Positions 5,201 through 31,307 of a DNA stretch of 32,000 nt are shown here, one piece after another; position 1 is the first letter of the stretch, and each line of letters starts with the position of its first letter. The DNA comes from Dickeya solani IPO 2222. Its GTDB lineage: Bacteria > Pseudomonadota > Gammaproteobacteria > Enterobacterales > Enterobacteriaceae. Made by a program: the position numbers and the translations under genes. The notes beneath the pieces were generated by a model. It saw nothing but the letters and a program-made list of their open reading frames with translations. It was not told the DNA's origin and made no database searches. The stretch lies in NCBI RefSeq assembly GCF_001644705.1, contig NZ_CP015137.1, positions 360,001 through 392,000 of the forward strand. Direction: 5' to 3'.

Positions 5201-8200
5201 CTACTGATACTCTGGTGGAAGTAGCCAAACAGGCGCGCACAAGAAAGCGATTCAATCGCCTGAACGCCAATATCAAACCCATCGCCGAAGTCATCGACAG
5301 AGACAGAGATCGGGTAGTTGGTGCGCTCTTCAAATCCGTGCCATACCACGCCATCAAATTCGATATCACCTAACACATCACTGTCGGTCGGGCGATTGCG
5401 GCGGTAGTTGAACACGGCGCTGAACATCGGCGTCGGCGCCACAATCCCACTACATTGTTGAGCCAGCGACAAGCTGGCATGTTCATGTTTTATCAGCGCG
5501 GTGAGGCGCTGATGCGTCTGGCGAACCGCATCGGCGGCATAACCCTCGCCGACATCAAGACGCAACGGCAGCGTATTGATGCAAGGCCCCATGATTTTAT
5601 CGCTGTTCTCACCGTGCATACGTCCGGACAGGACGGTACCGAACACCACCGTATCGCTGCCGCAGGCAGCGCTCAGGACCCGCGCCCAGCTCAAGTGGCA
5701 CAGACTACTCACGCTTACGCCAAGGCGGCGAGCCTGAGCGCGCAGCCGTTGAGCCAGCGGCGCTTCAAGCGGGCGCCGTGTTTCACTGATCCGCTGGCCT
5801 TTAAGGTGGCCGTTCTTGAGATTAAACGGCACCGACGGTTCGGTGATGTCCGCCAGCATGTCGGTAAAAAACGCCGATTGCTGTTGGGTATCGTGACGTT
5901 GCTGCAACCGCGCCACGTGATGACGAAACGGCAATGCCGCCGGCAAACGCGCGCCTTCGCCATTGAGGAATGCCTGAATGTCGGAGAGCAAAATCTGTAG
6001 TGAGGCAATGTCATCCACCAAATGATGGATATACATCAAGGCTTCCCAGCGGGCCTGTTCTTCATCATAGGCCACCACCATGTGTAGCAACGGCGGCTGC
6101 GTGAGGTCGATGCGGTTGACCTGAGGATCAACGCGCGCCTTCATCTGTTCAACGACCGGGCCATCCTGAGCATCAAAGGTGAGCTCTGCAACGTGCAAGC
6201 GCGCGTGGCGTAGCACGACCTGCACAGGCGTTTCTACCCCTTGCCAGATAAACGCGGTGCGCAAGATATCATGGCGCTCAACAACGTGTTGGATAGCCTC
6301 AAGATAGCGATCCAGGGTCTGCCGGTGCGTAAATGACAGATGACCACACTGAAGGTAAGGGTCGCCGGCTTCATCGAACAGATGGTGGAACAGAATGCCT
6401 TCCTGCAGCGGCGCCAGCGCATAGATATCCTGAATATTGGCGATGCCTCCAGGTATGCGGGTAACGATCTGGTCTATCTGCTGTTGAGAAAGCGACACTA
6501 ACGGGAAAAGCGCGGGATGAAGCGCGGTGGTCGCCGGCGTGACCACATTCTCCGGGATGACGAACGCCGGGGAGGCATCGTCCTCAAGCCTGATTTGCGC
6601 AGCAAGATCGGCCAAAACTGGATGAGCGAAGAGAGTGGGCACATCGGTATACAGTTTCTGCTCACGGAGCGCTGCCTGCAGTTGCATCGCCAGCAGTGAA
6701 TGCCCACCCAGTTCGAAGAAATTGTCCTGCCGCCCGACCTGATCAACGCCGAGCATTGTCCGCCACAGCTGCGCCAGAATAGATTCCGTACCGGCGTTCG
6801 GCGCTTCAAAGTCGCGCTGCACGTAAGCGCTATCGTCCGGTAGCGGCAAGGCCTTACGATCGATCTTGCCATTCGCCGTCAGCGGCAGCGATTCCATCAC
6901 CACAAACGCCGCCGGGATCATATAGTGGGGCAGTTGCGTGGCGAGCACCTCGCGCCATTGCGCAATCGCACCATTACCGCACGCCGCCTCTGGCACTACA
7001 TAAGCCACCAGACGGGCCTCGCCGCTATCCGGCGTAATGCCGATAACGGTAGCGTCTTTGATGTGCTCAAGCGCCGCAATACGCGACTCGATTTCACCAA
7101 GCTCAATGCGATACCCGCTCAGTTTGATTTGGTGATCGCGACGGCCAAGAAATTCAATACGACCATCGTCAAACCAGCGCCCGATATCACCGGTACGGTA
7201 GACTCTGGCTCCGGCAACCCAGGGATCGGCAATAAACTGCTGGGCCGTCAGTTCAGGGCGATTCATGTACCCCACCGCGACGCCCTCGCCGCCGATCCAG
7301 ATTTCACCCGCCATGCCCGGCGCGCAAAGCTGACCCAGATTATCGACCACGTACATACGGGTGTTGGCGATGGGCCGCCCAATACTCAGGCGAGTATCCT
7401 GGCTGTGCTCAAAACCACGCATCCATGCCGACGACATAATGGTGGTTTCCGTCGGGCCGTAACCATTGATGTAACGGCAGCGCTCGCTCCAGCGTTCAAT
7501 CAGCCCAGGCGTCGGCGCTGACCCCGCCGTCAGAATGGTCATGCCTTCAGGCACGCGTGCGGGATCTAAGTGCGTGAGATACGGCGGTGGGAAGGCCGAG
7601 AAACGAATGTCGTGTTCAACCATATACTCCGTCAACGCGGGCGGATTCTGAATCAACGCATTCGACAGCAGATGCAGTTCACAACCGCGCGTCAAGGTAC
7701 CGAAAATCTCGCCCGCTGAGGCATCAAAGGTATAAGGCGCGAACTGGGTGATCGGTTGCCCGGCGCTAAAAATCCCGATGTGTTCGCACCAGGCACAGAA
7801 ATTGATCAGGCTGCGATGCGCTATCTCTACGCCTTTCGGCGTGCCCGTGGTCCCAGAGGTATAGATGATATAAGCAATAGCGTGCGAATCGATGGCCTCA
7901 GAATGGCTATCCTCAGGCTGCTCAGCATCCGTTTGCGCCTGCTCCAGATAATCCTCAACCAACAGCAAGGTGCTGCTTTCGTCCTCGCTAAAACTCGACC
8001 GATCGGCCCGGCTGGTCAGCGTCCAGCGCACTCGCGCATCGTTAATAATGAACGCGCGACGCTCGCCCGGCGCATCCAGGCCGACAGGCACATAAGCAGC
8101 GCCCAGCTTGATGATACCCAGCATGGCCGCGATCAGGTTCGGCGTTTTATCCATACTCAGGACAATACGATCGCCCTGGGTCACGCCGACGCGGCGCAGC

Positions 8201-9126
8201 CCTGCCGCAATCCGTTCGGCGCGTTCGGCAAGCTGCCGATAGCTTAAACGCACATCGCCTGCCACCAGCGCGGTGGCCTCGTTTCTCGCCGCCACTTGCT
8301 CGGCAAACAGAGAATAGAGAGAGCGATCCAACGCCGCATCGAGTTCGGTCGCATTCCACTCATGCATAACGCGTTCGATTTCTGCGTTACTGAGCAGCGA
8401 CTGTTCACCCAGTGTGTGCTCACTGCGCTGTGCAAAGCTGGACAACAGCTGCTGCAGGCGATTGAGAATGTTATGCGCATCTGCCTCGGTCATCTCGCCT
8501 TGGCGGTAATGCAGCGCTAATGACAACGTGACCCCGGTCTGGACAATAAGATGCAGCGGTACGTGCAACCTGTGGCGTTCATTTTCCGAGCCATGCGCAT
8601 CATGCACACTGATCAGCGAGTCGAAAAGCGGTTGATTCGATGGAAAGCCCACACCGTGCGAAAGGACATCAGGCATCAGATCGACATGGCGCTGATGCTG
8701 CTCAAACACTGAGGCAATATCGTTAAACCAGTCGCGCAACGCGAGACCGGCATCAAGATGCATGCGTAACGGCAAGGCGCAGTCTTCACCCCCGTCACGG
8801 GCAGGGAACCGCTTGCCAAACAGGACTTCATCCTCACCGCTGTACTTGCTCAGCAACAGGCTCCATGCCGCCGTCATCAGCACGTCCCATGTGGTGGACT
8901 CACGCTGCACCAGCGCCAGCAGTTCGGTACTCAACGCCTGCTCAACGTGGGAAACGAGCACACGGACTTCCTGCGCAGAGGAGGAGGCGCTCTTGGTATC
9001 CTCGCTCTCAGTGGCATTAACAAGGCTGGCGTTTGCCGTTCTTTGCGCCCCGGTAAGGTATCGCTGCCAATAAGCCGCGGCAGTATCCTTACGCGACAAG
9101 AGCATATTCTCCTGCATGGTAGCCAT
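2224..9126 (-). CDS. Bimodular NRPS: truncated C - A - T - C - A(luciferase-like monooxygenase insert) - T
   Basis: The ORF is 6,903 nt (2,300 aa). ATG 9126 lies 3 nt after the stop of the AT gene, with GAGGGAG upstream. Domain motifs are listed in the sub-features. It ends ...ADLAARTIELAETRL with no TE or R domain. Confidence 0.97.
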   Translation of the reverse strand: MATMQENMLLSRKDTAAAYWQRYLTGAQRTANASLVNATESEDTKSASSSAQEVRVLVSHVEQALSTELLALVQRESTTWDVLMTAAWSLLLSKYSGEDEVLFGKRFPARDGGEDCALPLRMHLDAGLALRDWFNDIASVFEQHQRHVDLMPDVLSHGVGFPSNQPLFDSLISVHDAHGSENERHRLHVPLHLIVQTGVTLSLALHYRQGEMTEADAHNILNRLQQLLSSFAQRSEHTLGEQSLLSNAEIERVMHEWNATELDAALDRSLYSLFAEQVAARNEATALVAGDVRLSYRQLAERAERIAAGLRRVGVTQGDRIVLSMDKTPNLIAAMLGIIKLGAAYVPVGLDAPGERRAFIINDARVRWTLTSRADRSSFSEDESSTLLLVEDYLEQAQTDAEQPEDSHSEAIDSHAIAYIIYTSGTTGTPKGVEIAHRSLINFCAWCEHIGIFSAGQPITQFAPYTFDASAGEIFGTLTRGCELHLLSNALIQNPPALTEYMVEHDIRFSAFPPPYLTHLDPARVPEGMTILTAGSAPTPGLIERWSERCRYINGYGPTETTIMSSAWMRGFEHSQDTRLSIGRPIANTRMYVVDNLGQLCAPGMAGEIWIGGEGVAVGYMNRPELTAQQFIADPWVAGARVYRTGDIGRWFDDGRIEFLGRRDHQIKLSGYRIELGEIESRIAALEHIKDATVIGITPDSGEARLVAYVVPEAACGNGAIAQWREVLATQLPHYMIPAAFVVMESLPLTANGKIDRKALPLPDDSAYVQRDFEAPNAGTESILAQLWRTMLGVDQVGRQDNFFELGGHSLLAMQLQAALREQKLYTDVPTLFAHPVLADLAAQIRLEDDASPAFVIPENVVTPATTALHPALFPLVSLSQQQIDQIVTRIPGGIANIQDIYALAPLQEGILFHHLFDEAGDPYLQCGHLSFTHRQTLDRYLEAIQHVVERHDILRTAFIWQGVETPVQVVLRHARLHVAELTFDAQDGPVVEQMKARVDPQVNRIDLTQPPLLHMVVAYDEEQARWEALMYIHHLVDDIASLQILLSDIQAFLNGEGARLPAALPFRHHVARLQQRHDTQQQSAFFTDMLADITEPSVPFNLKNGHLKGQRISETRRPLEAPLAQRLRAQARRLGVSVSSLCHLSWARVLSAACGSDTVVFGTVLSGRMHGENSDKIMGPCINTLPLRLDVGEGYAADAVRQTHQRLTALIKHEHASLSLAQQCSGIVAPTPMFSAVFNYRRNRPTDSDVLGDIEFDGVVWHGFEERTNYPISVSVDDFGDGFDIGVQAIESLSCARLFGYFHQSISSLVAALEADRVPAAAPMPLYELNILPPEERRHLLKTWNDTAVPFPATATIHQLFERQVEQRPQALALQMGNVRLSYAELNQRANRLAHHLIAQGVRPDTRVAVCTERTETMLVALLATLKAGGAYVPLDPEYPATRLAYILEDATPKVLVLDQRGRDVFGAAAGSDITVVDLARDGARWEALPGGNPDVATLNASHLAYVIYTSGSTGKPKGVMVEHRQVVNFLTGMQALFNLGVEDCLLSVTSISFDIAGLELYLPLMTGASIVLASRSQAMDPHALLNLLHTLNITIMQATPTTWRLLVDTDATPHKQLKILCGGEALPSDLAVRLHAFGESLWNLYGPTETTVWSTCNRVNAEDVTQYNQSIGRPIANTQVYLLDRYGKPVPMGAIGELYIGGDGVARGYHQRPELTAERFIPDPFSTDPAARLYRTGDFAQFMADGRLIFLGRTDHQLKLRGHRIELGEIEARLLSHPWVREAVVVAREDISGETRLVAYVVPGVTEEYVEEALADSDSLDFSLFFFGASSDAVQAYNHYAEVAEFGDKHGFTAVWTPERHFHHVGGLFANPALLSASLLARTRHIQLRPGSVVLPLHDTLCVAEDWSILDNLSNGRVGIGVASGWNKQDFVLAPQNYDERRELMHKGIEELKTLWQGGSVSRRDSHGDEISVRIYPAPVQKQLPIWVTAAGASETFEYAGRSGANLLTHMLTQNIEKLAKNIEIYRTARENAGFDPRTGTVTVMIHTYLGENLNEVLAQAKGPFLDYLEGHLSLLSGWLKEQNIHLDTLPSADKRSMLEFAFKRYTRELSFIGTPESALPVAEKLQEAGVNEVACLIDWIVPENALPALEHAAALKGLVQTLFSRKALRKHLQDALPDYMVPAAFVTLKSLPLTPNGKIDRNALVPPDEMSFARRAYVPPQGSMEITMASIWEELLGVERIGRQDHFFELGGYSLLAVRLIEQLRRRGLSIEIRTLFDTPILADLAARTIELAETRL
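2251..2451 (-). other. Thiolation (PCP) domain T2
   Basis: HFFELGGYSLLAVRLIEQL; the Ser2257 codon is at 2356-2358, checked against the DNA. Confidence 0.9.
2506..5055 (-). other. Adenylation domain A2, predicted glycine-specific, interrupted between A8 and A9/A10 by a monooxygenase domain
   Basis: Motifs are LSYAELN, LKAGGAYVPLDP, AYVIYTSGSTGKPKG, FDIAGLE, NLYGPTETT, GELYIGGDGVARGY, YRTGD and GRTDHQLKLRGHRIELGEIE. About 340 foreign aa follow, then LPDYMVPAAFV and PLTPNGKIDR. The hand-derived Stachelhaus residues (GrsA numbering) are D235 I236 L239 Q278 L299 G301 L322 V330 W331 K517 = DILQLGLVWK. That is one conservative change from the canonical Gly code DILQLGLIWK. Confidence 0.85.
2647..3663 (-). 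other. Luciferase-like (FMN-dependent) monooxygenase (MOx) domain embedded in A2
   Basis: aa ~1822-2160 read LDFSLFFFGASSDAVQAYNHYAEVAEFGDKHGFTAVWTPERHFHHVGGLFANPALLSASLLARTRHIQLRPGSVVLPLHD...GRVGIGVASGW...IPIWVTAAG. This is the typical N-terminal signature of the natural-product LLM domain family found inside NRPS A domains. Confidence 0.85.
5152..6495 (-). other. Condensation domain C2 (full length)
   Basis: Motifs are IQDIYALAPLQEGILFHH, RHDILRTAFIW, MYIHHLVDDIAS (H1034-H1035-x3-D1039), IMGPCINTLPLRLD and FEERTNYPISVSVDD. Confidence 0.92.
6592..6795 (-). other. Thiolation (PCP) domain T1
   Basis: NFFELGGHSLLAMQLQAAL; the Ser810 codon is at 6697-6699, checked against the DNA. Confidence 0.92.
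6847..8319 (-). other. Adenylation domain A1, substrate not assignable
   Basis: Motifs are LSYRQLAERA, IKLGAAYVPV, AYIIYTSGTTGTPKG, FDASAGEIF, NGYGPTETT, GEIWIGGEGVAVGY, YRTGD, GRRDHQIKLSGYRIELGEIE and PLTANGKIDR. The hand-derived specificity residues are D A G A L A G I M K, a code I do not recognise. Confidence 0.88.
8362..9084 (-). other. Truncated condensation-like domain (C-terminal lobe only; no HHxxxDG)
   Basis: aa ~15-255 begin at the YW..L motif (AAYWQRYLTG) that normally follows the catalytic N-lobe. They continue with VLMTAAWSLLLSKYSGEDEVLFG, CALPLRMHL and QPLFDSLISV, then run straight into A1. The ORF starts only 14 aa earlier, so there is no room for an N-lobe. Confidence 0.7.
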
Positions 9127-9129
9127 TGG

Positions 9130-11016
9130 TTATGCTCCCTCTGTGACAACTTGCCTGGAATGGTTTTTTAAAACATTCAGTAAGTTGGATACGCTTTCGG
9201 CGTTCCTGCCGAATTGATTGATGATCGCGCCGTGCTGAAAACGCGCGGCAAATCCGTATTTGATGAAGATTGACAGGGTGCCGGTTGGGCTGAGATCAAC
9301 AAAAAACGCCTCGTTTTTCTCAGCCAACGCCTGCATTAAGCCGTAGAAATCGACGGGCTCGCGCAAGACTCGCCAGAAATACTCGCTATCCCATCGCTCA
9401 ACCGCGGTACTCAACATGGCGGAGTACACCGGCATTGCGGGGGTGTTTTTCGGCAAGGTGTCGACTAAGGCTCGGAAATCGTGCTCGATAGCCGCTATCC
9501 CGGACGAGTGGAAGGGTTGCTCAACCGGCAGCAGCATCGAGATAATCTCCAGTTGCGTCAGGCGTTCTTTGAGAGCCGACAGACTCGCCACATCACCACT
9601 GACCACAAAGTTATTCTGGAAGTTAATGCTGGCTAACTCGGCGCCCTGATAAAGCGCGGCATTCGCGTGGAAGTGCGCCACCGGCGCCAGCACGCTCATC
9701 ATCCCGCCGCCGGCGGTTTTCTTGTGCAGCAGGTGCGCCTGAGACACCACCAGTTTTATGGCGTCATCAAGCGTCAATACACCGGCCACGACAGCCGCGA
9801 TGCACTCGCCCAGGCTGTATCCCAGCACGGCGTCAGGTTCGATCCCTTCTGCTTTGAGCATACCGGTCAGGCTGACGCCAACACTCAGTAACGCCACATT
9901 GGACAGCGCCACATCAGAGAACGGCAGGTGATGGCGGGCGTCGTCATACAGCGCCTCCAGAAGACCGTGGCCGGTGTGTTGACGATACAGAGCGTCACAC
10001 CTGTCCATCTGGCTGCGAAAGGTACTATTACGTCGATACAGTTCACGGCCCATGCCGTAATACTGCGCACCCTGCCCCCCAAACATAAACACCACACGAG
10101 GGTTGGAGGATGGCGTTGTCGGGGCGTCGGCCACGTTTTTTACCGTTGGCTTACCCGGCAACGCCATCGGCTGTGCTTTTATTTTGTCAAACAGGCTGGT
10201 TAGTACCTGCCCTGGCCCGATTTCGTGCTGTTTAACCTCGCCGGACGCCAGCAGCCGCGAGATACTTTCGTACCAACGAACGGGGTGGCTTATCTGGCGC
10301 GTTAACAAGTCAAGATAATCGGTTTCTGGATAATCGAGCGCTGTGTAGTTGGAAATAACCCGCGCATTGAGCGGATTGAAAGTAAAGCGTTGCGCAAATT
10401 GTGCAAACTGCGCTTCGATATCTCGCATATAGCGAGAGTGAAAAGCCGCACTCACGTTTAGCCTGACGTAGCGTGCGCCGGCATCCGTAAACAACGTCTC
10501 GCAGGCAACGATGTCATCATAAAGACCCGAAATAACGATTTGCTGGGCACTGTTGATGTTGGCGATATCAATGCCGCTCAACGGCGACGCCGCGAGGAGC
10601 TCAACGATCTGATGCAGATCGATGCCCACGATGGCGGCCATCGCGCCGCGCGGCGCTTTCGACATCAGCATACCGCGCTCTCTGACCAGCGCGACGCCGG
10701 TTGCAAAATCAAACGCCCCCGCGGCAAACAGCGCGGCAAACTCCCCCAGACTATGACCCGCGTAGCAATCCGGCGCATCCAATCCGCTTTGTCGACTGGC
10801 GAGCACCCCGAGCGCTGAGACAACAAACAACGCTGGCTGGGTGAACATCGTCTCACCCAGCACACCCTGAGGATCGCTGAGGCATAGCTCACGAATGGAG
10901 AAACCGAGGATCTCATCGGCCTCGCTGACGAGCCTGGGGAAACGCTCAAACAGCTCATTCCCCATCCCTTTCTGCTGCGATCCCTGGCCAGGAAATACCC
11001 AAACTGAAGAAGACAT
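9130..11016 (-). CDS. Free-standing tandem acyltransferase (AT-AT) for the trans-AT PKS
   Basis: The track ORF is 9130-11049 and starts at GTG. I prefer ATG 11014-11016 (MSSSVWVFPGQGSQ), which has AGGAG at 11021-11025. It has two FabD-like halves with GHSLGE and GYSLGE nucleophile elbows. Confidence 0.93.
   Translation of the reverse strand: MSSSVWVFPGQGSQQKGMGNELFERFPRLVSEADEILGFSIRELCLSDPQGVLGETMFTQPALFVVSALGVLASRQSGLDAPDCYAGHSLGEFAALFAAGAFDFATGVALVRERGMLMSKAPRGAMAAIVGIDLHQIVELLAASPLSGIDIANINSAQQIVISGLYDDIVACETLFTDAGARYVRLNVSAAFHSRYMRDIEAQFAQFAQRFTFNPLNARVISNYTALDYPETDYLDLLTRQISHPVRWYESISRLLASGEVKQHEIGPGQVLTSLFDKIKAQPMALPGKPTVKNVADAPTTPSSNPRVVFMFGGQGAQYYGMGRELYRRNSTFRSQMDRCDALYRQHTGHGLLEALYDDARHHLPFSDVALSNVALLSVGVSLTGMLKAEGIEPDAVLGYSLGECIAAVVAGVLTLDDAIKLVVSQAHLLHKKTAGGGMMSVLAPVAHFHANAALYQGAELASINFQNNFVVSGDVASLSALKERLTQLEIISMLLPVEQPFHSSGIAAIEHDFRALVDTLPKNTPAMPVYSAMLSTAVERWDSEYFWRVLREPVDFYGLMQALAEKNEAFFVDLSPTGTLSIFIKYGFAARFQHGAIINQFGRNAESVSNLLNVLKNHSRQVVTEGA
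9250..10101 (-). other. AT2: divergent acyltransferase/acylhydrolase-like domain lacking the carboxylate-binding Arg
   Basis: VVFMFGGQGAQYYGMG, GYSLGE (Ser412 in track-ORF numbering), QPFHS. The residue 25 positions after the Ser, which is Arg117 in E. coli FabD, is Gln437 (KLVVSQAHLL). Confidence 0.75.
10150..11007 (-). other. AT1: malonyl-CoA:ACP transacylase-type domain
   Basis: VWVFPGQGSQQKGMG, GHSLGE (Ser100), Arg125 at the FabD Arg117 position (LVRERG), and an AAFHS (xAFH) malonyl-type motif. Confidence 0.85.
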
Positions 11017-11087
11017 AACTCTCCTATTACTGTTCCCGAGGACTGTCACTTAACGTTGCTTGTTTATCCCAACAGCGACTCGCTAGT

Positions 11088-11357
11088 TCAGGACTTGATC
11101 TCTTCAGCCGGTAGATGGGCTTCAATGGTGCCGACCAGATCCCCGAGCGTGTAAATACCGCGCTTGTCACCGTCGTTTACCTTGATGTGGAGCCGCTTCT
11201 CAATCTCGTACCAGGACTCAAGCATCTCGATCGAATCCACACCCAGCTCACCGCCGATAAATGAATCCAGGTCCACGACATCAGGGGTAAACCCGGTATT
11301 TTTGATGCCGTTAATAATGTCGAGAACAACGGAGAGAATGTCTTTCTGAGCGTCCAT
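11088..11357 (-). CDS. Discrete acyl carrier protein (89 aa)
   Basis: The phosphopantetheine site is GELGVDSIEMLE; the Ser42 codon at 11232-11234 was checked in the DNA. AAGGA lies 8 nt upstream of the ATG, and the gene starts 24 nt after the AOS stop. Confidence 0.9.
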   Translation of the reverse strand: MDAQKDILSVVLDIINGIKNTGFTPDVVDLDSFIGGELGVDSIEMLESWYEIEKRLHIKVNDGDKRGIYTLGDLVGTIEAHLPAEEIKS

Positions 11358-11381: not shown

Positions 11382-12626
11382 TTAGAGCGCGTCAAACTCG
11401 CGCGCAACCTCAGTGATAATGTCAACAACTTGATCGATCTCTTCCCGGGTATGGGAAGACATCACGGAGAGACGCAGACGTTCTTTATCAGGAGGGACCA
11501 TCGGGTATTCCATGATGTTGGCGAACACACCACGTTCAAAAAGACGGCGGTTTATATTGCCCACCACGGAGATTTTCCCGAAGAAGACGGGAATGATCCC
11601 GGACTCTCCGCGAAGAATGTTGAAGCCTTTCGATTCCAACTGGTCCTGCATGTAGCGCACGTTGTCATGCAGGCGCTCAATGCGTTCCGGCTCGCGTTCC
11701 ATCACGTCCAACGCCGCGGAAATAGCCGCAATCGTCGGCTGCGCTAAACCCGAGGTAAACAGATAAGGATAAGAGAAGTTTCGCAGCATAAAGATGTGTT
11801 CACGGCTGCCGGAGATGAAAGCGCCCTGAGCGCCCAGTGATTTGCTGCAGGTGGACATACGCAAATCAACCTGGCCCAGCAGGTCTAAATGCTCAAGCGT
11901 TCCCTTGCCGGTTCGCCCCAAGGTGCCCAAACCGTGAGCATCATCGAGAATGGTGATGATGTCGTGCGCCCGGCAGATATCGATGTAACGCTTGAGATCG
12001 ATGGTCGAGCCGTCCGTAGAACGCACGCCTTCCACAGTGGAAAATATTTGCGTATGAGGTTTCGAACGCGCCCGAATTTTAGGCAACATCGCCTCAAACT
12101 CATCCAGGCGCTCGGGATCGAAGGTAAAGAACGGCACGTTGGTCATTTTGACCGCGTTGATCACGCTGGCATGGCTGTTCTGGTCATAGATGATGATATC
12201 GTTACGATTCATCAGTCCATTCACCCAGCACAGGTTTGCCATATAACCGCTCGGCAGCAGCACCGCGTCTTCGTGGCCTGCTAACGCCGCCAGACGCGTC
12301 TCAAGATCCCGATGTTGCCTGGTGTAACCGGAAAATGCCGGCGACCCGCCGGTGCCAATACCGTATTTTTCTACCGCTTCGACCACTTTGCTTTTCACGT
12401 AAGGATGGTTAGCCAGACCGAGATAGCTGTTTGAACCAAACACCAATACATTTCTGAAGTCGTCGCTATGCAGGTCTTTGTACTGCATGCGCGCATCAAC
12501 CGGCCCCACGCCCTGGCGTCCGAACATGAAGCCTTTTTCCAGCTCTTTCAAATAGGTGTCATAGCGTAATTTCACGCGTTCCTTGAAAGGCTTACGTTCA
12601 AGTTCGATCAGATCATGAAAATCCAT
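11382..12626 (-). CDS. PLP-dependent alpha-oxoamine synthase (BioF / KBL / serine palmitoyltransferase family), 414 aa
   Basis: Family motifs are FGSNSYLGL (aa 63-71), NSHAS (His152), ILDDAHGLG (Asp228, His231) and MSTCSKSLGAQGAF with the Schiff-base Lys262 (codon 11841-11843 checked). AGGAGG lies 8 nt upstream of the ATG. Confidence 0.92.
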   Translation of the reverse strand: MDFHDLIELERKPFKERVKLRYDTYLKELEKGFMFGRQGVGPVDARMQYKDLHSDDFRNVLVFGSNSYLGLANHPYVKSKVVEAVEKYGIGTGGSPAFSGYTRQHRDLETRLAALAGHEDAVLLPSGYMANLCWVNGLMNRNDIIIYDQNSHASVINAVKMTNVPFFTFDPERLDEFEAMLPKIRARSKPHTQIFSTVEGVRSTDGSTIDLKRYIDICRAHDIITILDDAHGLGTLGRTGKGTLEHLDLLGQVDLRMSTCSKSLGAQGAFISGSREHIFMLRNFSYPYLFTSGLAQPTIAAISAALDVMEREPERIERLHDNVRYMQDQLESKGFNILRGESGIIPVFFGKISVVGNINRRLFERGVFANIMEYPMVPPDKERLRLSVMSSHTREEIDQVVDIITEVAREFDAL

Positions 12627-12677: not shown

Positions 12678-13667
12678 CTAAGGCGCAATAAAACCGTTGG
12701 CCCGATACCAGGAAACGCACTCCTCCACCATCTGGCTTAAGGAGGAAGGCTTATAGCCCAGCTCACGCTCTGCCTTGGCGCTGCTAAAGTAATAAACCCC
12801 ACCGAAGACACGCAGACGATAGGCATCCAGCACCGGTTCGCCGCGCACCAGCCAGGGCAACTTTTCCTGAAGCAGGGTTTTCAGATAGAAAGACGAATAA
12901 TGGGTCTTAGGCAGATCAACCTTGCACGGCACGACCGATTCAATGGTGTTGATAAGCTCGGTATAGCGAGCATTCGCCCCCGCAATCAGGTAGCGCTCGC
13001 CTGAGTTTCCTTTGGTTAAGGCGCTGACGTGCGCGTCACCGACATCACCCGCGCCGCAAAAACTGGCACCGCCCGGGGGCAGGAACGGCAACTGGTTATA
13101 GTTCACCGCCAGCACCATGCGCCCCCACTGCATTGAATAGTCGTAGGCACCCAGCACTTCCGTCGGGTTCAGAATGACGGCGGACAAGCCGCGATCGCAG
13201 GCGCGGTACACCAGCTCCTCAGCGAGCAATTTACTTTTGGCATAAGGGTTTTTCGCGCGAAAACCCGCCAGCGCGGTCTCTTCGGTCGCTTCGGCGGCGG
13301 GGTCGTTATGCGCCCCGATCGTCGAGCTGGTACTGGTATACACCAGACGCGACACCCCGCATGCCAGCGCCGCCTCAATCACCGAGCGCGTCCCTTCAAC
13401 ATTGACCGCTGCCAGCAGCGGCCAGTCACGGGCGTTGCTGCTGGTATTGCCTGCGGTATGAATCACCCCGTCGTGCCCGGCCATCGCCGCTCGCAGGCGC
13501 TGGTTATCATGCAATTCGCCGCGCACCAGCGTGACGCCGAACGATTCCAGAAAGCTCACGTTGGATGACGCTCGCACATACGCCGTGACCTGATGTTTGG
13601 CGGCGACCAAGGCTTTTATAACGTTGAGCCCAACAAATCCGTTTGCTCCGGTGATCAGTATTTTCAT
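12678..13667 (-). CDS. NAD(P)-dependent extended short-chain dehydrogenase/reductase (epimerase/dehydratase fold), 329 aa; candidate ketoreductase
   Basis: MKILITGANGFVG (TGxxGxxG), a Ser-rich TSTSS strand, and PYAKSK (Tyr142-x3-Lys146). Its ATG 13665-13667 overlaps the PKS TGA 13664-13666 (ATGA). Confidence 0.9.
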   Translation of the reverse strand: MKILITGANGFVGLNVIKALVAAKHQVTAYVRASSNVSFLESFGVTLVRGELHDNQRLRAAMAGHDGVIHTAGNTSSNARDWPLLAAVNVEGTRSVIEAALACGVSRLVYTSTSSTIGAHNDPAAEATEETALAGFRAKNPYAKSKLLAEELVYRACDRGLSAVILNPTEVLGAYDYSMQWGRMVLAVNYNQLPFLPPGGASFCGAGDVGDAHVSALTKGNSGERYLIAGANARYTELINTIESVVPCKVDLPKTHYSSFYLKTLLQEKLPWLVRGEPVLDAYRLRVFGGVYYFSSAKAERELGYKPSSLSQMVEECVSWYRANGFIAP

Positions 13668-16600
13668 GGTGTTTGGTCTTGCTGATTAAGTTTTTCAAGC
13701 GTTTTCAGGAAGGCCTTGCGCCCTTCCCCTTTGCTGCGCATAGGAAGCGCCGCCGGATTTTTATCCGGATGGTTGGCGATCCCTTCAAGCAGAATCACGA
13801 ACTGCTCAAGCAGTTGATCTAGCTGCGCTATCTGGGTGTCCATCCCCCGGCAGTCAAGACGTAAAAGCACACTGTGCGCCTCAACGCTGACCACCAGCGC
13901 CACATGCAGCCCAGGTTGAACGGCAAAGAGCGCGGAGATGGCCTCGCTCAAACCGGCCTCGTCGCCGTCAGTCAGCAGAGCAACCGCGCTATCAAACAGC
14001 GGCGCATCGCCAACCCAGCGCTCAATCCGCTCAAGCGTGGCCCCGGTATGGTCGAAACATTTTTCAAGCTGTGTTTCAACGCCTTTGAGCCAAAGCGCGG
14101 TCTTGTGGCGCCCAACCACCTGAATACGCGCGGGTATCATCTGAAGATGTTCATCATTAACATGCCGGATCAGGCCGAACTGGGAATACTTGCCCCGCGC
14201 ATGGCGATTGGTGAGAAGCGCCCAGCCAGCGGCCATCAGCGTCTCAACGGAGATCGCCTGACGTTGGGTACAGATTTGCAGGGCCGCCACCGTGTCCCGA
14301 TCGATTCGCCGCTCCACGGACAGCGTTTGCGGTGCGGAGGCTTCGGCATCCTGAACCTCTGCGCCGCCAAGCAGCACCGAAGCCATCAACGCGCCGACCT
14401 CGTCTTGGGCATGCGGTTCTTGGGCATGCAGTTGCTCAACCCAGAACGCCTGCAATTGCTCATCGTCTAGCGCGTCCACGTTGCGTTCATTCCGCGGGCC
14501 GGCAAACCATGCCTGCGGTACGGTAGGGGTAGGCGCGGCATCAGGAGCAGGTAGCGCAGCTAATTCGTTGTGGCGTGTTTGCCGCTGCGGTGCGTCAAGG
14601 CGCAGCGCGGCGTAAAGATCGCAGGGTTCTTTCGCAAAGGGGTAGCCGGGGAAAGCCACGCGACGACGTACTGCCTCGTGGTGTAACAGGCTCCAGTCAA
14701 TGTCGCAGCCACGACTCCACAGAGTGGCGACTTTGGCGAGCTGCTGCGTTTGCACCAATACATGAATAAAGTGCTTACCCGCCTCGCCGGCGATCAGCTG
14801 CGGGACATCTTTGGTTTCACGCACGTTGCCGCGATAAATATCCAGCTTGCTATGCTCAGAGGCAGGGTGAGCAATAAAGCACTCCAGTTTCGTCAGCAGA
14901 TCATCAATACTCGTCGCCACGATAGCCAACCGATGATCAAGCGTGACACGCCCAATCTGGCTGGTGTAGGCCAGGTCAGCGAGATGAAGCGCACTCCCCT
15001 GTTGCTTAATAAAGTCACGCATCTCGACGGCATACGCCGCCAAACGCTCCGCCCGATGCGCCGACAACACCACTATCTGCGGGCTGTTCTCCGCGTTATC
15101 CCTGGCGACAAGTGTTTGGTCACTATTTCGCATGAGCACGTCCTCGGGGGACTCAACCACCACAAATGCGGTAGAACCGCCCATGCCATAGGCGTTAATC
15201 CCTGCCAAACGCGTGCCTCTGGCATTGGTGCGCCATTCCTGCGCCTCGCGCGGGAACAGGAACGCAGACGTTTCATGCTCGAACGACGTGTTGACACGAT
15301 CAAGGTTGACACAAGGCGACAGACGGCCGTGCTGCATGCTCAGCAGCACCTTAATCAATGAACAGATGCCCGATGCCGCTTCCATGTGCCCAAGGTTGGC
15401 CTTGGTTCCCAACGCGCAAAAATGTTGCGCGTGAGTCTGGCGACGCAGCGCGTTGGACAGCGCCTTCAGTTCAATCGGATCGCCCAACTCGGTCGCCGCA
15501 CCGTGGCTTTCGATATACGTCAGCTCGTTAACGTCGATACGCGCCTCGTCCAGCGCCCGAACGGCGGTCTCCTCCATCACGGCCAGATTCGGCAAATATT
15601 GCCCCGCCCCCGTGCCCGCATGGCCGATGCTTGAACCGCGCAGCACGCCATAGATATGGTCGCCATCCGCCAGTGCGGTGCTCAGGCGTTTCAGTACCAC
15701 CATGCCGCTGCCTTCGCTTGGAATCAGGCCATTGGCGCGCTCATCGAAGGTGTGCTCCTTGCCGTCCGAAGAGAGCACGTTCATCTCCTGGAGCAGCATA
15801 TATTTGCTTGGGTGAAGGCTAAGATTAATGCCGCCGGCGAGCGCCATATCACACTCACCACCGAGAATGGCCTTACGTGCGATGTGCACGCTCGTCAGCG
15901 ATGACGCACAGGTGGTGGCAACGCAGAAACTGGGGCCGCGCAGATTCATCAGGAACGAAATGCGATTCGCCAGCTCACTGACGACAGAACCCGCCCCCGG
16001 ATATCGACCCGTGCGGGCATAAAGCTCGGCCATGACCCAGGTGAAATCTTCATTCATCGCGCCGACATACACGCCCACTTGCTGAGACGTGAGCGCTGAC
16101 GGGGTGTAACCGGCGTTCTCCAGGGCATGCCAGGCGGAGCGCAACAAAACACGCACCTGAGGATCGAGACGACTGGCTTCATCACTGCTCATACGGAACA
16201 TCTCTGGATCAAAGACATTCACGTTGTTGAGGAAACCACCGCGATTCACGTAACGCGGATTGCCGTTATCGTCCGGCGAAATAGCCCAACGCGCATTCGG
16301 GATCGTAGTCAGGCTCTCTTTGCCCGCCTGAATATCCGCCCAGAAATCCGCCAGATTCTCGGCGCCGGGGAACTCGCCCGCCACACCGATAATCGCCACG
16401 GCGTCACTGGCGGCATTCACACTGGTTGATAACGATGAGCGGGCAGCATGCGAACCCAAGGTATTCGTGGGCGCGTTAGGCATCGCCCGTTTAACATAAG
16501 GCGCGGCAGCGGCAGCGCCGGCGTGATGGCTATTCACCGTCGCTGCGGTACGACGCGGCGGCGTCTCTGCCGACACCTGCTGGCTCTCCTGCGTTGCGCC

Positions 16601-19600
16601 ATAACGCTCGCACAGATATCCGGCCAGTTTAGCCGTGGTATTAAACTCAAACGGCGCCGTTTTCGGCAGTCCGTCATACTCTTTCTCAAGCACGGCGCGT
16701 AACTCCATCAGCATGATGGAATCCATACCTAACTGCTCAAAGGTGGCATCCGCAGCGATATCGCCGGCAGGAAGCTTGGTGATGGTCGAAATACGCTCCC
16801 TCAGCGCGTTCTCGCTCTGCATGTAGGCGCTGTCGCTGGGCCGCGTCGGCTCAACGGCATGTTGCTTACTGGCCGCGACATTCACGCGCGCCGGCGGTGC
16901 AGAGCGCGCCACCTCATCGGCCTGAATACGCAGGGCACGGGCAATCTTGTTGCGGTCCCCAACCACAATCAGCAATTCAGGGCGTTGTTCGAGTAGCGCG
17001 CGTTCGAGGGCGATAAGGCCGGCCTCCTGGTCCAATGCCGCCATGCCGGAGAACGCAAACAGGGTGGCATCCTCTTGTTCGATGTTCATCTGACCACTGG
17101 CCCACAGCGGCCAGTTGATAGAGATAGTCTGACCGGCACGCCGCCCTTTTTTAACCAGGTTGCTGCGCCATACCGCATGGCTATCCATAAAGCGATTACC
17201 TGCGGCGTAAGCACCTGAACCCAAATCGCCGAGCACGGCTGAAACGGAAGAGAAGTTGACGAAAACGGAGAGCGGCTCCTGCGCCGTAGCGCGGTCAAGG
17301 GCCACCAGACCGTCTATCTTCGGTCCAATCAGCGCGTAAAATTCAGCATCTTGCAGTGCGGTCATCGGTGTTGCGCTAGCGACGCCCGCGCAATGCAACA
17401 CGCCATCCAATGCGCCGAATTCGGCTTTGGCTTGCGCAATCAACGCGTCAGCCTGCCCCTCTAGCGCTACATCCGCGGCGATATAGCGCACCTCGGCGCC
17501 TTGCTCGCGCATAGCAACCAGTTGCTGCTGCACGGCATCACCGGGCTGGGCCGAACGGCCGCTCAACACAATACGGGCCTGATAGCGGGATGCCAGATAG
17601 TTGGCCACCAGCAGCCCCAGCTTGCCGGCGCCGCCGGTAATCAAATAATGACCGTGACGGACGAAATTCAGGCGCTCATCACTCGTCGAGCCGTCTGTTT
17701 TGGGGGGCACAATTTCGCCAAGCTGACGCTGGTAGCGTTTTCCACTCCGGTAGGCCAACTCTAATCCGGCAATCGGGGCAGGACGCGGTACGAACTCCAG
17801 ATGAATATGGGAGGCAAGCGCCGCAGCGCTATCCGCATCGCTACGCAATGTGAACAGCTCGAAGCGATGGTTAATCGTCGACAACGAGCGTGCATATCCA
17901 CTTGCCGCATCGTGTTGCGGCTCGACCTGATCAGGCGGTGCGGTATAGACGTTAACGCAGCGTAGCGCTTGCCCCGGTGTTACCGTTTCCAGCGCCACAA
18001 ACAGGTTACGTAACGACTGCAATCCGGCATGCAATAACGGCGCGACACCAACGGCTGGGAAGTCATCAAAGTGCTTATCCGCGCCGATTGCATGCACGAT
18101 GTGGGTAGGCCACATCTGCTGTGCGGCCAACTGCTCACACAATGTCTGTACGCTGGCTTGAGATTGCATATCGGCGCTGAATCGGCAGGCATCGTGCTGG
18201 GCAAACGCGTTTGCCTGCGTAACGGCAATCACGCGTGCTGAATCACCGTAAAGCGCGCGTAACGCCTCAGCCAACGCGTCGTCATCGCTGAGCACCAACA
18301 CCTGTATCGCCGCGGAACTCACCGCTGTAACCGAGGTGGTTTCCGGCAGTGGCGATGCCTGCCACTCATAGGCATAGTACTGCACGTCTTGTGACGTCAT
18401 TGGCTGTGCCGTACTGGTATCACTCTCCAGCGTACGTGCGGCGAAGTCTTTCAGGCGCGCCAGCACCCGACCAGTAGTATCCACCAGCGTAATATCGTGC
18501 TTTTGAATCGGGCCGCCCAGACTCTGGCCCGACACACTCGATTGCGCTGGCGTCACATAGGCATAGCACTCTGTGCCGAGCGGATGGCGAAACTCCAGCT
18601 CACCGAGGAAGAACGGCACAATCGGCGTTGAATAGTCAGACGGCTCCAACCCTACCGCCAGACAGGTACGCAGCGCGCCGTCTAACAGCGATGGATGCAG
18701 ATAAAACGCATCAGCGGAACGTACCGCATCGGGCAGGCACAAATGACTTAGCGCAGAGTCAGCAAAGCGGTAACGCTCACGCGTCACCTGATAGCTCGGG
18801 CCATAGGCAAAACCCATTTTGGCAAAATCAGCATAGATAGCCGCCTGATCGCTTTCGTGTTTGCCGCGGTTACGCAGCGCGTCAAGATCGATCCATTCAT
18901 CGGCAATCTCGGTAGTTTTCGGGCGATAAACCAATTCCGCTTCTAGCGAGAGCACATCGGTATGGCGGTTACAGATCGCCACCTGCACGCTTTCGCCATC
19001 CGAGTGCGCCAGGTCGATTTCAACCTCCACCGGCTCGTCGTCCACCTCGATGGCGTTCATCCACATCAGGTTGCGAATAGCCCCCACGGCCCACTCGTTT
19101 CCAATCGCCAGTTGGCCCGCAGCGTGCATCATTTCGATATAGGCCGAGCCGGGTAAGATCACCCGCGCATCAGCGCTGCCAACCACATGGTCACGCAGAT
19201 AGGGCTCCTGCCCGGTCAGCTGTTTGATAAATTTCTGCTGCGACAGCGTGGAGGTGTTCTCGTCAATCAACGGGTGCAGCGATTTAACGCGGTGTGATTC
19301 GCCTGGTTCCGAAGGCAGAGCCAGCCAATGGCTGCGCATCATCAGCGGCAAAGAAGGGAATGAAACCCGACGCACCGCATGGTCTGCAAAGAGTAACGGC
19401 GCGACCTGTTGCCAGTTCACATCCAGCATCGTGGTCCACAAGCGGCCCAAACGCAGAAGCTGGCGTTCTTGTACCAAGCCGGTCACCAGCTCATCAAGCT
19501 GCCTGCCTTCAAGGATGGTATCCAGACGTTCGCTGCTGCCGGCGACACGCCCACGAAACAGCTGTTTCGCCGCGCCGTCCTGCCGGTATTGCTCAAGCTG

Positions 19601-29740: not shown

Positions 29741-30315
29741 TATTCACATCCATATGTTTATTATTTATCGCAATAACTGATGTCATTTGAGCGTCCGAAT
29801 AGCCTTTTGAATGGCTGGCTCATTAGCAGGTCAACAAATTTGATATTCCATTACCATTAAATAAACAGCTTTAATGGATATTGCATCAAAATCATTCGCA
29901 CATCTAATACAATTCGATTCTTTTTTTTGTCAGGATGTTACTCACCCCTCCAATAGATCAGCATAAAACAAACAAACTTAATATCAATTATTTGATTTAT
30001 ATGATTTTTTAAATGAAACAAAAAAACACAATTTACGATATAACCAGAATGAAAAATCATAAATAATAAATTTCACTAATGAAATCACGGAGTGCAAATA
30101 TTATTTAAAATATTATCTGTCGATTCTTAATTAAACACCTTGCCATTCTTGAAAGCATATCCGCGCCAAACAATTCGTCATATAAAATTCATTAAATAGT
30201 CATTTAAATGTCATAAAAAATAACAATCAGCATTACTTAGCCAACGAAGATTACATTGTCACCTGACTTCATAAACATTAATTCCGTACTTTGAATTTAA
30301 TTTAAAAATATAGTT
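29741..30315 (-). promoter_or_regulatory. AT-rich (about 20-30% GC) upstream region of the PKS operon; probable promoter and regulatory (silencing) region; no specific -35/-10 called
   Basis: Hand counts of 60-nt lines give 28% GC at 29941-30000 and 20% at 30001-30060, against 53-62% inside the operon. It contains A/T tracts, the 10-bp palindrome CATTTAAATG (30201-30210) and AATATTAT-TTAA-AATATTAT (about 30098-30117). The only -35/-10 candidates I found are weak. Confidence 0.55.
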
Positions 30316-30541
30316 TATATCCTAAATAATTCGAGTTGCAGGACAACATGTCCGCGCTTTGAATAACGCAACGCGTTAGCCCTTCAGGACAAGGCTCGTC
30401 ATGGGCCTTACGTAGCGAATCCCCACAGGGCCACCAGAAGTCGATTTGAACGCAGTTTGTTGTGGTCCCGGAGGGGGGAGACCTATGGATGGGTCGAGGA
30501 ATAAAGCCAACACACCCACAACCTGGGGTATGACGAGTATA
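30316..30541. repeat. ERIC/IRU-like enterobacterial intergenic repeat, enlarged by internal insertions
   Basis: The ends and core match the ERIC consensus as I recall it. The left end is TATATCCTAAATAATTCGAGTTGCAGGA (consensus TATACTCTAAATAATTCGAGTTGCAGGAAGG). The core is GAATCCCCACAGGGCC (GAATCCCCAGGAGCTT). The right end is AAAGCCAACACACCCACAACCTGGGGTATGACGAGTATA (CAGCCAACGCAGCACATGCAACTTGAAGTATGACGGGTATA). About 100 nt of extra sequence lies between the matching blocks. Confidence 0.6.
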
Positions 30542-30803
30542 TTCGAAAAACGTTCATTCATTGCGACATCACCCGTTCTTTGACCGCGCATCATACCCGG
30601 TGGGCATAGACACAGGTTCTACCGCTCGGTAACAGCGCTGCACAAGAATCTTATTTATTCGATAAAACTGGGTTGAGGGTGGAATAATTTTATTTGTTCA
30701 GCCAACGCCAGTCAGCTACCATAAAAATGGCTGCCATTATTAGTGGTGGCAAATCGTTATTAATTTTCACTTCTGATGAAAGCATATTTAAAATGGAGTC
30801 ATT

Positions 30804-31307
30804 ATGTTAGAAATTGTGACAGGGATGCCAGCATGGGTAATTGTACTTTTGGTTTCAACCACATTCTATTGTATAAGTTTTTGCTTTGAAAAAGAGGTTA
30901 GCATTAAGCTTTTGCTACTTATTCCAGGCTGTTTTATGATTTTTTCGATTATCTCTATACTGCAGCAAGGTAACATCCTGGTTTCAGGTCTGGTATGGTT
31001 ATTAGGCTGTATATTAGGCGGGATCGTAGCAAAGAGAATTTTTTCACCTCAAGCCTACAGTCTAGGCCGTAAGGAAGGCACAGTTACTGTGCCGGGGACA
31101 TATTCTATTATTACAATTTTTTTACTCTACTTTCCTCTTCGTTATTATATCGGTTATCGTCAGGCAATCGCGATTGATCATACCCTCAGCGCTCCAATGA
31201 TTTTACTGTTAGCCATATCGTCAGGAGGGATTGTCGGTTTTTTCACCCTTCGCTCATACGTTATCTTTTGGCGCTATAAGAAATTGAATATTAAAAGAAT
31301 AGCTTAA
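30804..31307 (+). CDS. Hypothetical small integral membrane protein (167 aa, about 5 predicted TM helices)
   Basis: The ATG is preceded by GGAG at 7 nt. Hydrophobic segments are PAWVIVLLVSTTFYCISFCF, LLLLIPGCFMIFSIISIL, LVSGLVWLLGCILGGIVA, YSIITIFLLYFPLRYYIGY and MILLLAISSGGIVGFFTL. GC is low (30% in the sampled line 30841-30900). I recognised no catalytic motif. Confidence 0.7.
   Translation: MLEIVTGMPAWVIVLLVSTTFYCISFCFEKEVSIKLLLLIPGCFMIFSIISILQQGNILVSGLVWLLGCILGGIVAKRIFSPQAYSLGRKEGTVTVPGTYSIITIFLLYFPLRYYIGYRQAIAIDHTLSAPMILLLAISSGGIVGFFTLRSYVIFWRYKKLNIKRIA

Follow-up and report, generated by a model that had tools for sequence, protein, structure and literature searches.

A lone terminal ketosynthase in the solanimycin cluster of Dickeya solani may pass its polyene chain to a free acyl carrier protein and an alpha-oxoamine synthase

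Where does a polyketide chain go when the last ketosynthase (KS) of its synthase is followed by no carrier domain? This question is raised by a 32,000-nucleotide stretch of the genome of Dickeya solani IPO 2222 (NZ_CP015137.1, positions 360,001 to 392,000; hereafter the window, to whose numbering all coordinates refer unless another locus is named), in which the trans-acyltransferase (trans-AT) polyketide synthase (PKS) SolA ends in such a domain, here called KS4. The window contains solA to solF and the start of solG of the solanimycin (sol) cluster of D. solani, which has been genetically dissected in two published studies (Matilla et al. 2022, PMC9765074; Murphy et al. 2023, PMC10204066). 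We propose that KS4 gates chain length and hands a C14 hexaenoyl chain in trans to SolD, a free-standing acyl carrier protein (ACP), for use by SolC, a pyridoxal phosphate (PLP) enzyme of the alpha-oxoamine synthase (AOS) family, a reading that we hold to be somewhat better than an even bet. The locus, its lone KS and the unusual domain at the end of SolA have all been described in print, so the KS4 observation itself is already known. The AOS identity of SolC, the half condensation domains at the end of SolA and the start of SolF, the catalytic invariance of KS4 and the conserved cassette around it do not appear in the two sol papers.

The window was recognized as the sol cluster because its protein sizes and gene order match the published table and because three of its proteins match D. 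solani exactly. SolA (5358 amino acids), SolB (329), SolD (89) and SolF (2300) have the same sizes, and their genes the same order, as in Table 1 of the first study (PMC9765074), while SolC has 414 residues here versus 415 published, and SolE, with a GTG start, 639 versus 628. The sequences of SolB, SolC and SolD were found exactly in 41-50 D. solani contigs. All long open reading frames (ORFs) of the window lie on the minus strand, and so do all features described below.

The solA gene (13664-29740) was read as a trans-AT PKS from its ORF, translation and Pfam domains. Its domain order by Pfam is KS1-DH-KR-ACP / KS2-DH-ACP-ACP-(degenerate ACP) / KS3-DH-KR-ACP / KS4-flanking subdomain-half C, in which DH is dehydratase, KR ketoreductase and C a condensation domain. 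KS1 begins at residue 1, with no loading module, and no Acyl_transf_1 domain was detected in SolA by Pfam, the tandem acyltransferase (AT) being encoded separately by solE. The published string, KS-DH-KR-T-KS-DH-T-T-KS-DH-KR-T-KS, likewise ends in a lone KS (PMC9765074), and the terminal domain was described as one "more often found in NRPSs", or nonribosomal peptide synthetases (PMC9765074, PMC10204066). The KS4 core (residues 4446-4865; 15146..16405) is a complete KS domain by Pfam, matching the ketoacyl-synt N and C domains at E 4.8e-72 and 1.3e-27. The last carrier domain of SolA, ACP3 (residues 4312-4376; 16613..16807; PP-binding E 4.5e-12, with LGMDS at residue 4337), lies upstream of KS4, and no PP-binding domain was found downstream of it in SolA by Pfam. 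Instead of the cognate ACP of an elongating KS, the genes after KS4 encode a short-chain dehydrogenase/reductase (SDR), an AOS and then the 89-residue free ACP. The core is followed, as in other trans-AT systems, by a flanking subdomain or post-KS linker of the RhiE/CurL type (residues 4866-5037; 14630..15145; RhiE-like_linker E 7e-19, CurL-like_PKS_C E 9e-15, and KAsynt_C_assoc), ending in AFPGYPF at about residue 5036, then by a Pro/Ala-rich spacer (residues 5038-5090; 14471..14629) and a half-C tail (residues ~5091-5358; 13667..14470).

Does KS4 look like a working enzyme? Its motifs TTCASS (residue 4609), SDGKEHTFDERANGLIPSEG (4658), ESHGAAT (4744), NLGHME (4782) and GGSTAF (4854) were all found where a sequence-only reading of this DNA had placed them, as was Cys4611. 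The catalytic set of an elongating KS is retained: Cys4611 in TTCASS (codon 15908..15910), His4746, the HGTGT histidine, in ESHGAAT (codon 15503..15505), and Lys4780 and the second catalytic histidine, His4785, in KANLGH, which is followed by ME (15386..15403). The same reading had called KS4 highly divergent and had treated the replacement of one of its loops as an anomaly, and both statements went too far. KS4 shares 36-41% identity with KS1-3, compared with 44-58% among those three, which makes it the odd one out among the SolA KSs, at ordinary between-clade distance only. The loop form xFD...A(N/D)G is common elsewhere, TFD occurring 39 times and SFG 19 times among other KS matches. A PDB sequence search with KS4 returned generic trans-AT KS structures at about 380 bits, none of them clearly closest or diagnostic.

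Searching with KS4 plus tail, we recovered about 20 proteins and 12 genomic loci matching over the whole query, at 75% down to 32% identity, in Dickeya, Rouxiella, Erwinia, Pantoea, Serratia, Collimonas, Paraherbaspirillum, Lysobacter, Thermomonas and Gynuella, and in metagenome contigs. In an alignment of 22 family sequences, the Cys and both His are invariant, even in relatives of 32-36% identity, and the Lys of KxNxGH is kept in 20, with Arg in the other two. Loss of the HGTGT histidine, the hallmark of non-elongating KS0 domains, was seen in none of KS4 and its aligned relatives (~22). As Cys and both His are kept across these relatives, KS4 is, judged by its residues, not a classical KS0.

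The residues after HG do vary in the family (HGTGT, HGTAT, HGAAT, HGSGT), and the exact HGTGT was found in 7 of 14 family members, compared with 100 of 111 other KS domains. The departure from EAHGTGT to ESHGAAT, to which the sequence-only reading had drawn attention, is present in KS4, but HGAAT is confined to the Enterobacterales members, the other KS4 relatives having mostly HGTGT and in a few cases HGTAT or HGSGT. ESHG occurs in 12 of 14 family members and in none of the other KS matches (~106 KS-containing matches compared), GHME in 12 of 14 and in none of about 70 other KS domains. The C-terminal motif GGSNAF ends in Phe in all 14, a residue found there in only two other KSs and usually replaced by His. 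These counts, which ignore shared ancestry, suggest that the KS4 family is a small clade of its own, tied to the sol cassette, in which the surroundings of both catalytic histidines have been remodelled. The relaxed two residues after HG would fit an altered second half-reaction.

The tail behind KS4 matches the Pfam Condensation model at positions 192-439 of 456 only (E 0.0085). The same half of the model, from about position 190 on, was matched in 7 relatives, in some at E 2e-18 to 7e-18, and all KS4 homologues that cover the whole query carry the half-C tail, never a whole C domain. No HHxxxD motif was found anywhere in SolA. An AlphaFold model of the tail, built with 15 sequences, has a pLDDT of 74, rising above 85 over most of the lobe, and Foldseek aligned it to NRPS C domains over about 270-280 columns (E 4e-13 to 1e-9; TM about 0.45 of the full C). 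Sequence and model together point to the C-terminal lobe only of an NRPS condensation domain, without HHxxxDG, plus a terminal helix; the earlier description of SolA as ending in KS4, flanking linker and truncated C, with no ACP, thus agrees with the Pfam domains, the absent motif and the structure comparison. The spacer was modelled as one isolated helix with no compact fold (pLDDT about 43-57). We also considered whether the tail conceals an ACP and rejected this, since the helical stretch at its residues 21-62 is part of the flanking subdomain, which closes with AFPGYPF.

One could suppose that KS4 and its tail are remnants of a broken PKS-NRPS junction without a catalytic role. A truncated, catalytically dead C domain and an HGTGT motif degraded to HGAAT in Dickeya would be expected of such a remnant, but a remnant would have drifted, whereas the KS-halfC architecture is kept in every related cluster and, in 22 sequences of 32-50% identity, Cys and both His never vary and Lys gives way to Arg in only two. 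We consider this explanation very improbable.

If KS4 is active, its partner may be sought among the genes that travel with it. Every full-length KS4-halfC locus has, downstream, an SDR of ~330-395 residues, an AOS-type enzyme of ~415, an ACP of ~90-105 and then an NRPS, an order that holds even where the KS4 relatives are only 32-36% identical. This cassette occurs in Enterobacterales, Burkholderiales, Xanthomonadales, Gynuella and metagenome contigs, and wherever domains could be read the NRPS starts with A-T (adenylation and thiolation domains). A tandem AT gene lies between ACP and NRPS in most of these loci. In the Thermomonas metagenome-assembled genome (MAG; locus L008, 15291-22782), the NRPS directly follows the ACP, with no tandem AT gene between them, so ACP-AT adjacency is not universal. 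In Gynuella and one MAG, ACP-KS-halfC forms a separate protein of ~1030-1070 residues. Because every KS-halfC example that we found sits in a sol-like cluster, this context shows conservation and provides no second, independent association. An apparent KS-C-SDR fusion in protein P0019 was rejected; the SDR-type Pfam matches of this protein come from the KR at its N-terminus, and its locus has a separate gene for the SDR.

The identity of the enzyme next to the free ACP bears directly on the fate of the chain. The product of solC (11382-12626, 414 residues), published as an "aminotransferase", has its best PDB matches in Thermus AONS/KBL, Sphingobacterium serine palmitoyltransferase (SPT) and E. 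coli KBL (E 4e-64 to 1e-60). In NCBIfam, bioF, glycine C-acetyltransferase and SPT models match near-equally (E ~1e-84 to 1e-86), all below their equivalog cut-offs, so that the subtype is undefined. Aligned to E. coli KBL, the PLP lysine (SKS), DDAHG, SHAS, SNSYLGL and the carboxylate-binding Arg (RLRLS) line up. By family, SolC is thus an alpha-oxoamine synthase and probably not, as published, a transaminase, the reaction itself being something we infer; the sequence-only reading had already named this protein an AOS, and the PDB, NCBIfam and KBL comparisons bear that name out better than the published one. Some databases name SolC orthologues glycine C-acetyltransferase. We know of no member of the AOS family that is a dedicated transaminase. 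SolC is also unusually conserved across genera: more than 120 homologues, at least 67% identical, turned up in genomes and metagenomes (P0153-P0271 among them), and SolC is 67-77% identical between Dickeya and Lysobacter, Collimonas, Gynuella and Teredinibacter, compared with only 32-50% for KS4 and its tail.

SolD (solD, 11088-11357, 89 residues) has a serine motif (GVDS, in GVDSIEMLE) like the phosphopantetheine site of a free-standing ACP. Its matches to ACP models of NCBIfam, at E 9e-9, fall short of the cut-offs of those models, and Pfam gave no match; it is identical to a D. solani protein annotated "acyl carrier protein" and is called an ACP in the literature too. It is the only carrier that is not otherwise accounted for, and its gene lies beside the AOS gene in every full-length locus. 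No stand-alone C-domain gene was found between solA and solF; the AOS gene solC adjoins the ACP gene instead. SolB (solB, 12678-13667, 329 residues) is an extended SDR, matching Pfam Epimerase at E 1e-35 and, in NCBIfam, HpnA-like models, the OleD 2-alkyl-3-oxoalkanoate reductase (E 2e-37) and a thioester-reductase domain (E 3e-21). OleD itself acts on free 2-alkyl-3-oxo acids, which it reduces. The start codon of solB shares bases with the stop codon of solA (ATGA, 13664-13667), a hint that translation of the SDR is coupled to that of the PKS terminus.

The published genetics and chemistry limit what these proteins can do. In-frame deletion of solD, solC, solB or solI each abolishes antifungal activity (Matilla et al., PMC9765074), so the free ACP is not dispensable; had it been, the sequence-only reading would by its own terms have been refuted. 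The ΔsolF strain accumulates tetradeca-hexaenal, a C14 aldehyde, and ΔsolB accumulates hexaenoyl-CH2NH2 (C15H19NO) (PMC9765074, PMC10204066). The N-terminal residue of solanimycin, Ths, is a 2-amino-3-hydroxy C16 hexaenoic acid, giving an N-terminal group of formula C16H22NO2, and is followed by Gly, five dehydroalanines (Dha) and an unsolved tail (PMC9765074, PMC10204066). In the authors' route, module 2 adds the last, unreduced C2 unit, the P450 SolI oxidizes C2, SolC transaminates and SolB reduces C3. The authors concluded that the PKS iterates and suspected that the SolA end contacts SolF; module 3, KS4, the tail, SolD and the first adenylation domain (A1) of SolF have no firm roles in these papers (PMC9765074, PMC10204066).

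With SolC as an AOS, a different sequence of events can be drawn. A C14 chain needs six reductive extensions and KR domains are present only in modules 1 and 3, so iteration is unavoidable. KS4 would take the finished tetradeca-hexaenoyl chain from ACP3 and would thereby decide the length of the chain built by one or more upstream KS-DH-KR-ACP modules, for which iteration is a necessity; it is read as a gate because it occupies the same position as the KS downstream of the iterating module in the gladiolin and etnangien PKSs. Having no ACP of its own, KS4 would deliver the chain to free SolD in trans, either by non-elongating thiol-to-thiol transfer, as in a KS0, or by a last decarboxylative condensation onto malonyl-SolD, and plain transfer is slightly favoured over elongation. 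With an AOS working on hexaenoyl-SolD, KS4 would bring the chain no further than C14, and delivery would be plain transfer or the sixth extension considered below. SolC would condense acyl-SolD with a small amino acid to release an alpha-amino-beta-keto product, whose ketone SolB would reduce to the free beta-hydroxy amino acid Ths, which A1-T1 of SolF would reload as the NRPS starter. More speculatively, SolD or the half-C of SolF might dock on the dead half-C that is fused to KS4. An AOS acting on hexaenoyl-SolD would explain how the chain is released without a thioesterase and would yield a free 3-oxo amino acid for the OleD-like SolB; it fits the ΔsolB shunt, either directly or through decarboxylation of a beta-keto acid. 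The sequence-only reading had offered KS4 as either an elongating KS using the free ACP in trans or a gatekeeper or transfer KS. That framework finds partial support in the essential SolD, the conserved cassette and the retained histidines, and these data are compatible with either of its halves.

What would become of Ths after its release depends on SolF. The solF gene (2224-9126) encodes an NRPS whose Pfam domains read half C - A1 - T1 - C - A2 (with an inserted luciferase-like monooxygenase) - T2. The A1-T1 loading module (6595..8319) has DAGALAGIMK at its specificity-code positions, a code, read against a PheA reference, that is provisional. A1 keeps the Asp235 and Lys517 equivalents that bind alpha-amino acids and has a pocket of small residues, and its code is conserved in Enterobacterales and near-identical in the sol-like clusters of Burkholderiales. 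These features hint at a bulky hydrophobic alpha-amino acid, for instance free Ths, as the substrate, and free Ths would in turn give A1-T1 something to load, collinear with Ths-Gly and C-A2-T2. Taken as a whole, the junction would be of a hitherto undescribed "release and reload" kind, in which the chain goes from KS4 to the free ACP, is cut off by SolC with formation of a C-C bond, is reduced by SolB and is re-activated as free Ths by the first A domain, and the published P450/transaminase route would be wrong; we offer this complete scheme tentatively, and as doubtful rather than probable.

Several points weigh against the hand-over from KS4 to SolD and SolC. Both histidines of KS4 are invariant, although one of them, that of HGTGT, is usually missing from KSs that only transfer; their retention speaks for decarboxylative condensation. 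In feeding experiments with [2H2]- and [13C2]-glycine, Gly and Dha were labelled and the N-terminal group, according to the authors, was not; labelled serine entered Gly and Dha and, again according to the authors, not the N-terminal group, which acetate does enter. These results speak against glycine, and likewise against serine, as substrate of the AOS and favour malonate-derived C1-C2 and one more elongation. If Ths were produced as a free acid, it should build up in ΔsolF, where the C14 aldehyde alone was reported. Fusion of an ACP to the AOS or to the KS tail was found in none of the 120 SolC homologues, all stand-alone proteins of 376-423 residues. SolA has no loading module, so SolD could be a starter carrier, and the contact between KS4 and SolD is a putative one.

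The labelling can be accommodated in more than one way. Glycine as the SolC substrate, or serine followed by oxidation, fits the masses and was rejected as conflicting with the published 13C-glycine labelling; aspartate was rejected because it gives C17, and aminomalonyl-SolD because it would also carry label from serine. The absence of glycine label would be explained if the AOS used alanine and SolI oxidized the methyl group to a carboxylate, or if the glycyl unit were derived from threonine. As a speculation, the route through alanine and SolI would keep a canonical AOS, fit the labelling and give the essential P450 a role, and in ΔsolB its beta-keto acid would decarboxylate to the C15 ketone that is seen.

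Alternatively, KS4 could elongate with SolD as a split module, joining C14 hexaenoyl to malonyl-SolD, loaded by SolE, to give an unreduced C16 beta-keto thioester, on which SolI and SolC, here a transaminase, would aminate C2 on the carrier while SolB reduces C3. This combines the first option of the sequence-only reading with the published amination chemistry. It would account for the invariant Cys/His/His of the KS4 family, the tandem AT gene beside solD in most loci, the acetate label in the N-terminal group and the missing glycine label, the essential P450 SolI and the stall of ΔsolF at C14, and it has a counterpart in prodigiosin biosynthesis, where the AOS protein PigH provides the ACP onto which the KS PigJ extends the chain. 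SolC, however, belongs to the Claisen-condensing AOS family, with its carboxylate-binding Arg and catalytic motifs intact; a canonical AOS given a C16 beta-ketoacyl chain would make a product larger than the C16H22NO2 group; and half-C - A1 - T1 of SolF, with its amino-acid-type code, would be left without a substrate. We regard this route as unlikely.

Elongation by KS4 can also be reconciled with a canonical AOS. KS4 could perform the sixth and last polyene extension, from C12 pentaenoyl and malonyl-SolD, with the KR and DH of module 3 acting in trans to give hexaenoyl-SolD, so that an invariant histidine and an AOS that uses a C14 thioester would both make sense. Domain sharing is needed in any case, with six reductive extensions, two KR-containing modules and no KR in module 2, and in the gladiolin/etnangien study an excised ACP was serviced in trans in vitro by the iterating KS-DH-KR-ACP module. 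Action of KR3 and DH3 on SolD is purely assumed, however, so that this takes more assumptions than simple transfer, and it leaves the relaxed HGTGT motif without an explanation. It appears distinctly unlikely.

The missing loading module leads to another possibility, namely that SolD is not the partner of KS4 at all but the starter carrier for KS1, or serves SolC only, while KS4 hands its chain elsewhere and the half-C docks SolA on SolF. This would suit a SolA that begins directly with KS1, and it agrees with the suspicion of the sol authors that the SolA end contacts SolF. SolF starts with a half condensation domain of its own (residues 13-251; 8374..9090), which matches Pfam Condensation positions 191-453 (E 2e-12) and is 20% identical to the SolA tail (E 1e-4). 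The idea that it is the complementary N-terminal lobe, completing a split C domain, was rejected, as it too is a C-terminal lobe only. A C domain consists of two lobes of similar fold, so the homologous half-C lobes at the SolA end and SolF start might still pair as a docking interface. On the other side, solD adjoins the AOS gene in every full-length locus, far from the start of solA, and SolF has no domain to accept a chain from the KS cysteine, as its N-terminal C domain is incomplete and the domain ahead of T1 is an A domain with a code of amino-acid type. We judge this possibility to be slighter still.

Transfer from KS4 to SolD and on to SolC, our preferred reading, resembles several characterized systems in part. 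The terminal KS0 of the enacyloxin PKS reportedly passes its chain to the stand-alone peptidyl carrier protein (PCP) Bamb_5917, the C-domain protein Bamb_5915 being said to release it, in work attributed to Masschelein et al. in 2019; this KS0 is also said to lack the HGTGT histidine. KS0 domains move chains from one carrier to another, in enacyloxin to a stand-alone PCP, and the classical ones are without the HGTGT histidine. Both clusters have a terminal KS without a carrier, a discrete carrier encoded nearby, which in sol is needed for activity (ΔsolD is inactive), and a separate releasing enzyme that acts on this carrier. KS4, however, keeps both histidines and has a fused half-C, and the sol releasing enzyme would be a PLP-dependent AOS rather than a C domain.

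Similarly, in the MBC branch of prodigiosin biosynthesis, the KS PigJ elongates with malonyl-ACP, and PigH has the architecture ACP-ACP-AOS. Here too a KS that lacks its own ACP uses one belonging to an AOS, and the AOS off-loads the chain with an amino acid. The PigH ACPs are fused to the AOS, whereas the sol ACP, AOS and reductase are three separate proteins, and KS4 ends a trans-AT megasynthase and is only a putative elongating KS.

In the gladiolin and etnangien PKSs, a KS-DH-KR-ACP module is intrinsically iterative and makes polyenes, and the fused downstream KS competes for the ACP-bound chain and so determines how many rounds take place. The domain order is that of SolA modules 1 and 3, the next KS is likewise fused at the C-terminus, and its acyl preference decides when the polyene exits. 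That KS, however, has ACPs of its own and elongates, and KS4 may have a comparable substrate preference.

Finally, the proteobacterial SPT, itself an AOS, co-occurs with and uses a dedicated ACP that is loaded by a dedicated enzyme. In the bacterial sphingolipid pathway, ketoreduction follows condensation. The SPT cassette and the sol cassette thus share an AOS-family enzyme and a specialized small ACP loaded by a dedicated enzyme, but the SPT loader is an acyl-CoA/ACP synthetase and not a PKS KS, and the product is a decarboxylated sphingoid base, whereas solanimycin keeps the carboxyl group. A literature search found no paper pairing "oxoamine synthase" with "trans-AT". The novelty implied by the sequence-only reading is nevertheless not upheld, since the cluster has been published together with its lone KS and odd terminal domain, and PigJ/PigH, enacyloxin and SPT-ACP provide precedents.

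Solanimycin is a potent broad-spectrum antifungal whose structure is partly solved, and its hexaenyl beta-hydroxy amino acid lacks an established origin. If the hand-over from KS4 to SolD and SolC is true, the published pathway needs correcting, because SolC would form a C-C bond rather than transaminate. KS4, the half-C tail, SolD and A1 of SolF would all gain roles, and many related clusters could be read in the same way. It would also be another case of a KS with a full catalytic set that serves a free carrier, which is relevant to the rules for predicting trans-AT PKS products. The comparative findings amount to a specific, testable alternative pathway, a useful correction for a niche system and not a new kind of machinery.

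A few further features of the window and of related loci were observed. The solE gene (9130-11049, 639 residues) encodes a tandem AT-like protein, a trans-AT plus a putative acyl hydrolase (AH), in which Pfam matched Acyl_transf_1 in two stretches (E 3e-75), in line with the published AT-AH annotation (Matilla et al., PMC9765074; Murphy et al., PMC10204066). Behind the tandem ACPs of SolA module 2 lies a third, degenerate ACP-like segment (residues ~2745-2835; 21236-21508) that is 34% identical to ACP2b (E 4e-8) and has threonine in place of the phosphopantetheine serine (LDSM -> LDTI). The start of solG (1-2240) runs off the start of the window; by eye, the SolG N-terminus (MSDFEQLLLTLEEAKISISLDNDDLVITSAKGALTSEIKSALREHKMTMVHAL) resembles a TubC/EpoB-type beta-hairpin docking domain, which may matter for the iteration proposed for the single SolG module. 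In Rouxiella badensis DSM 100043 (CP114060.1; locus L003, 1-12734), the solA homologue is spread over four consecutive ORFs (1123, 1332, 1136 and 779 residues) and the SDR is missing from the ORF list; the break indicates either a pseudogenized cluster or sequencing frameshifts. Upstream of solA (29741-31000), the GC content falls to 37-41%, compared with 52-60% within the cluster, and promoter-like sites are enriched (17 observed versus 6.5 expected), both of which are consistent with the horizontal acquisition and complex regulation that have been reported.

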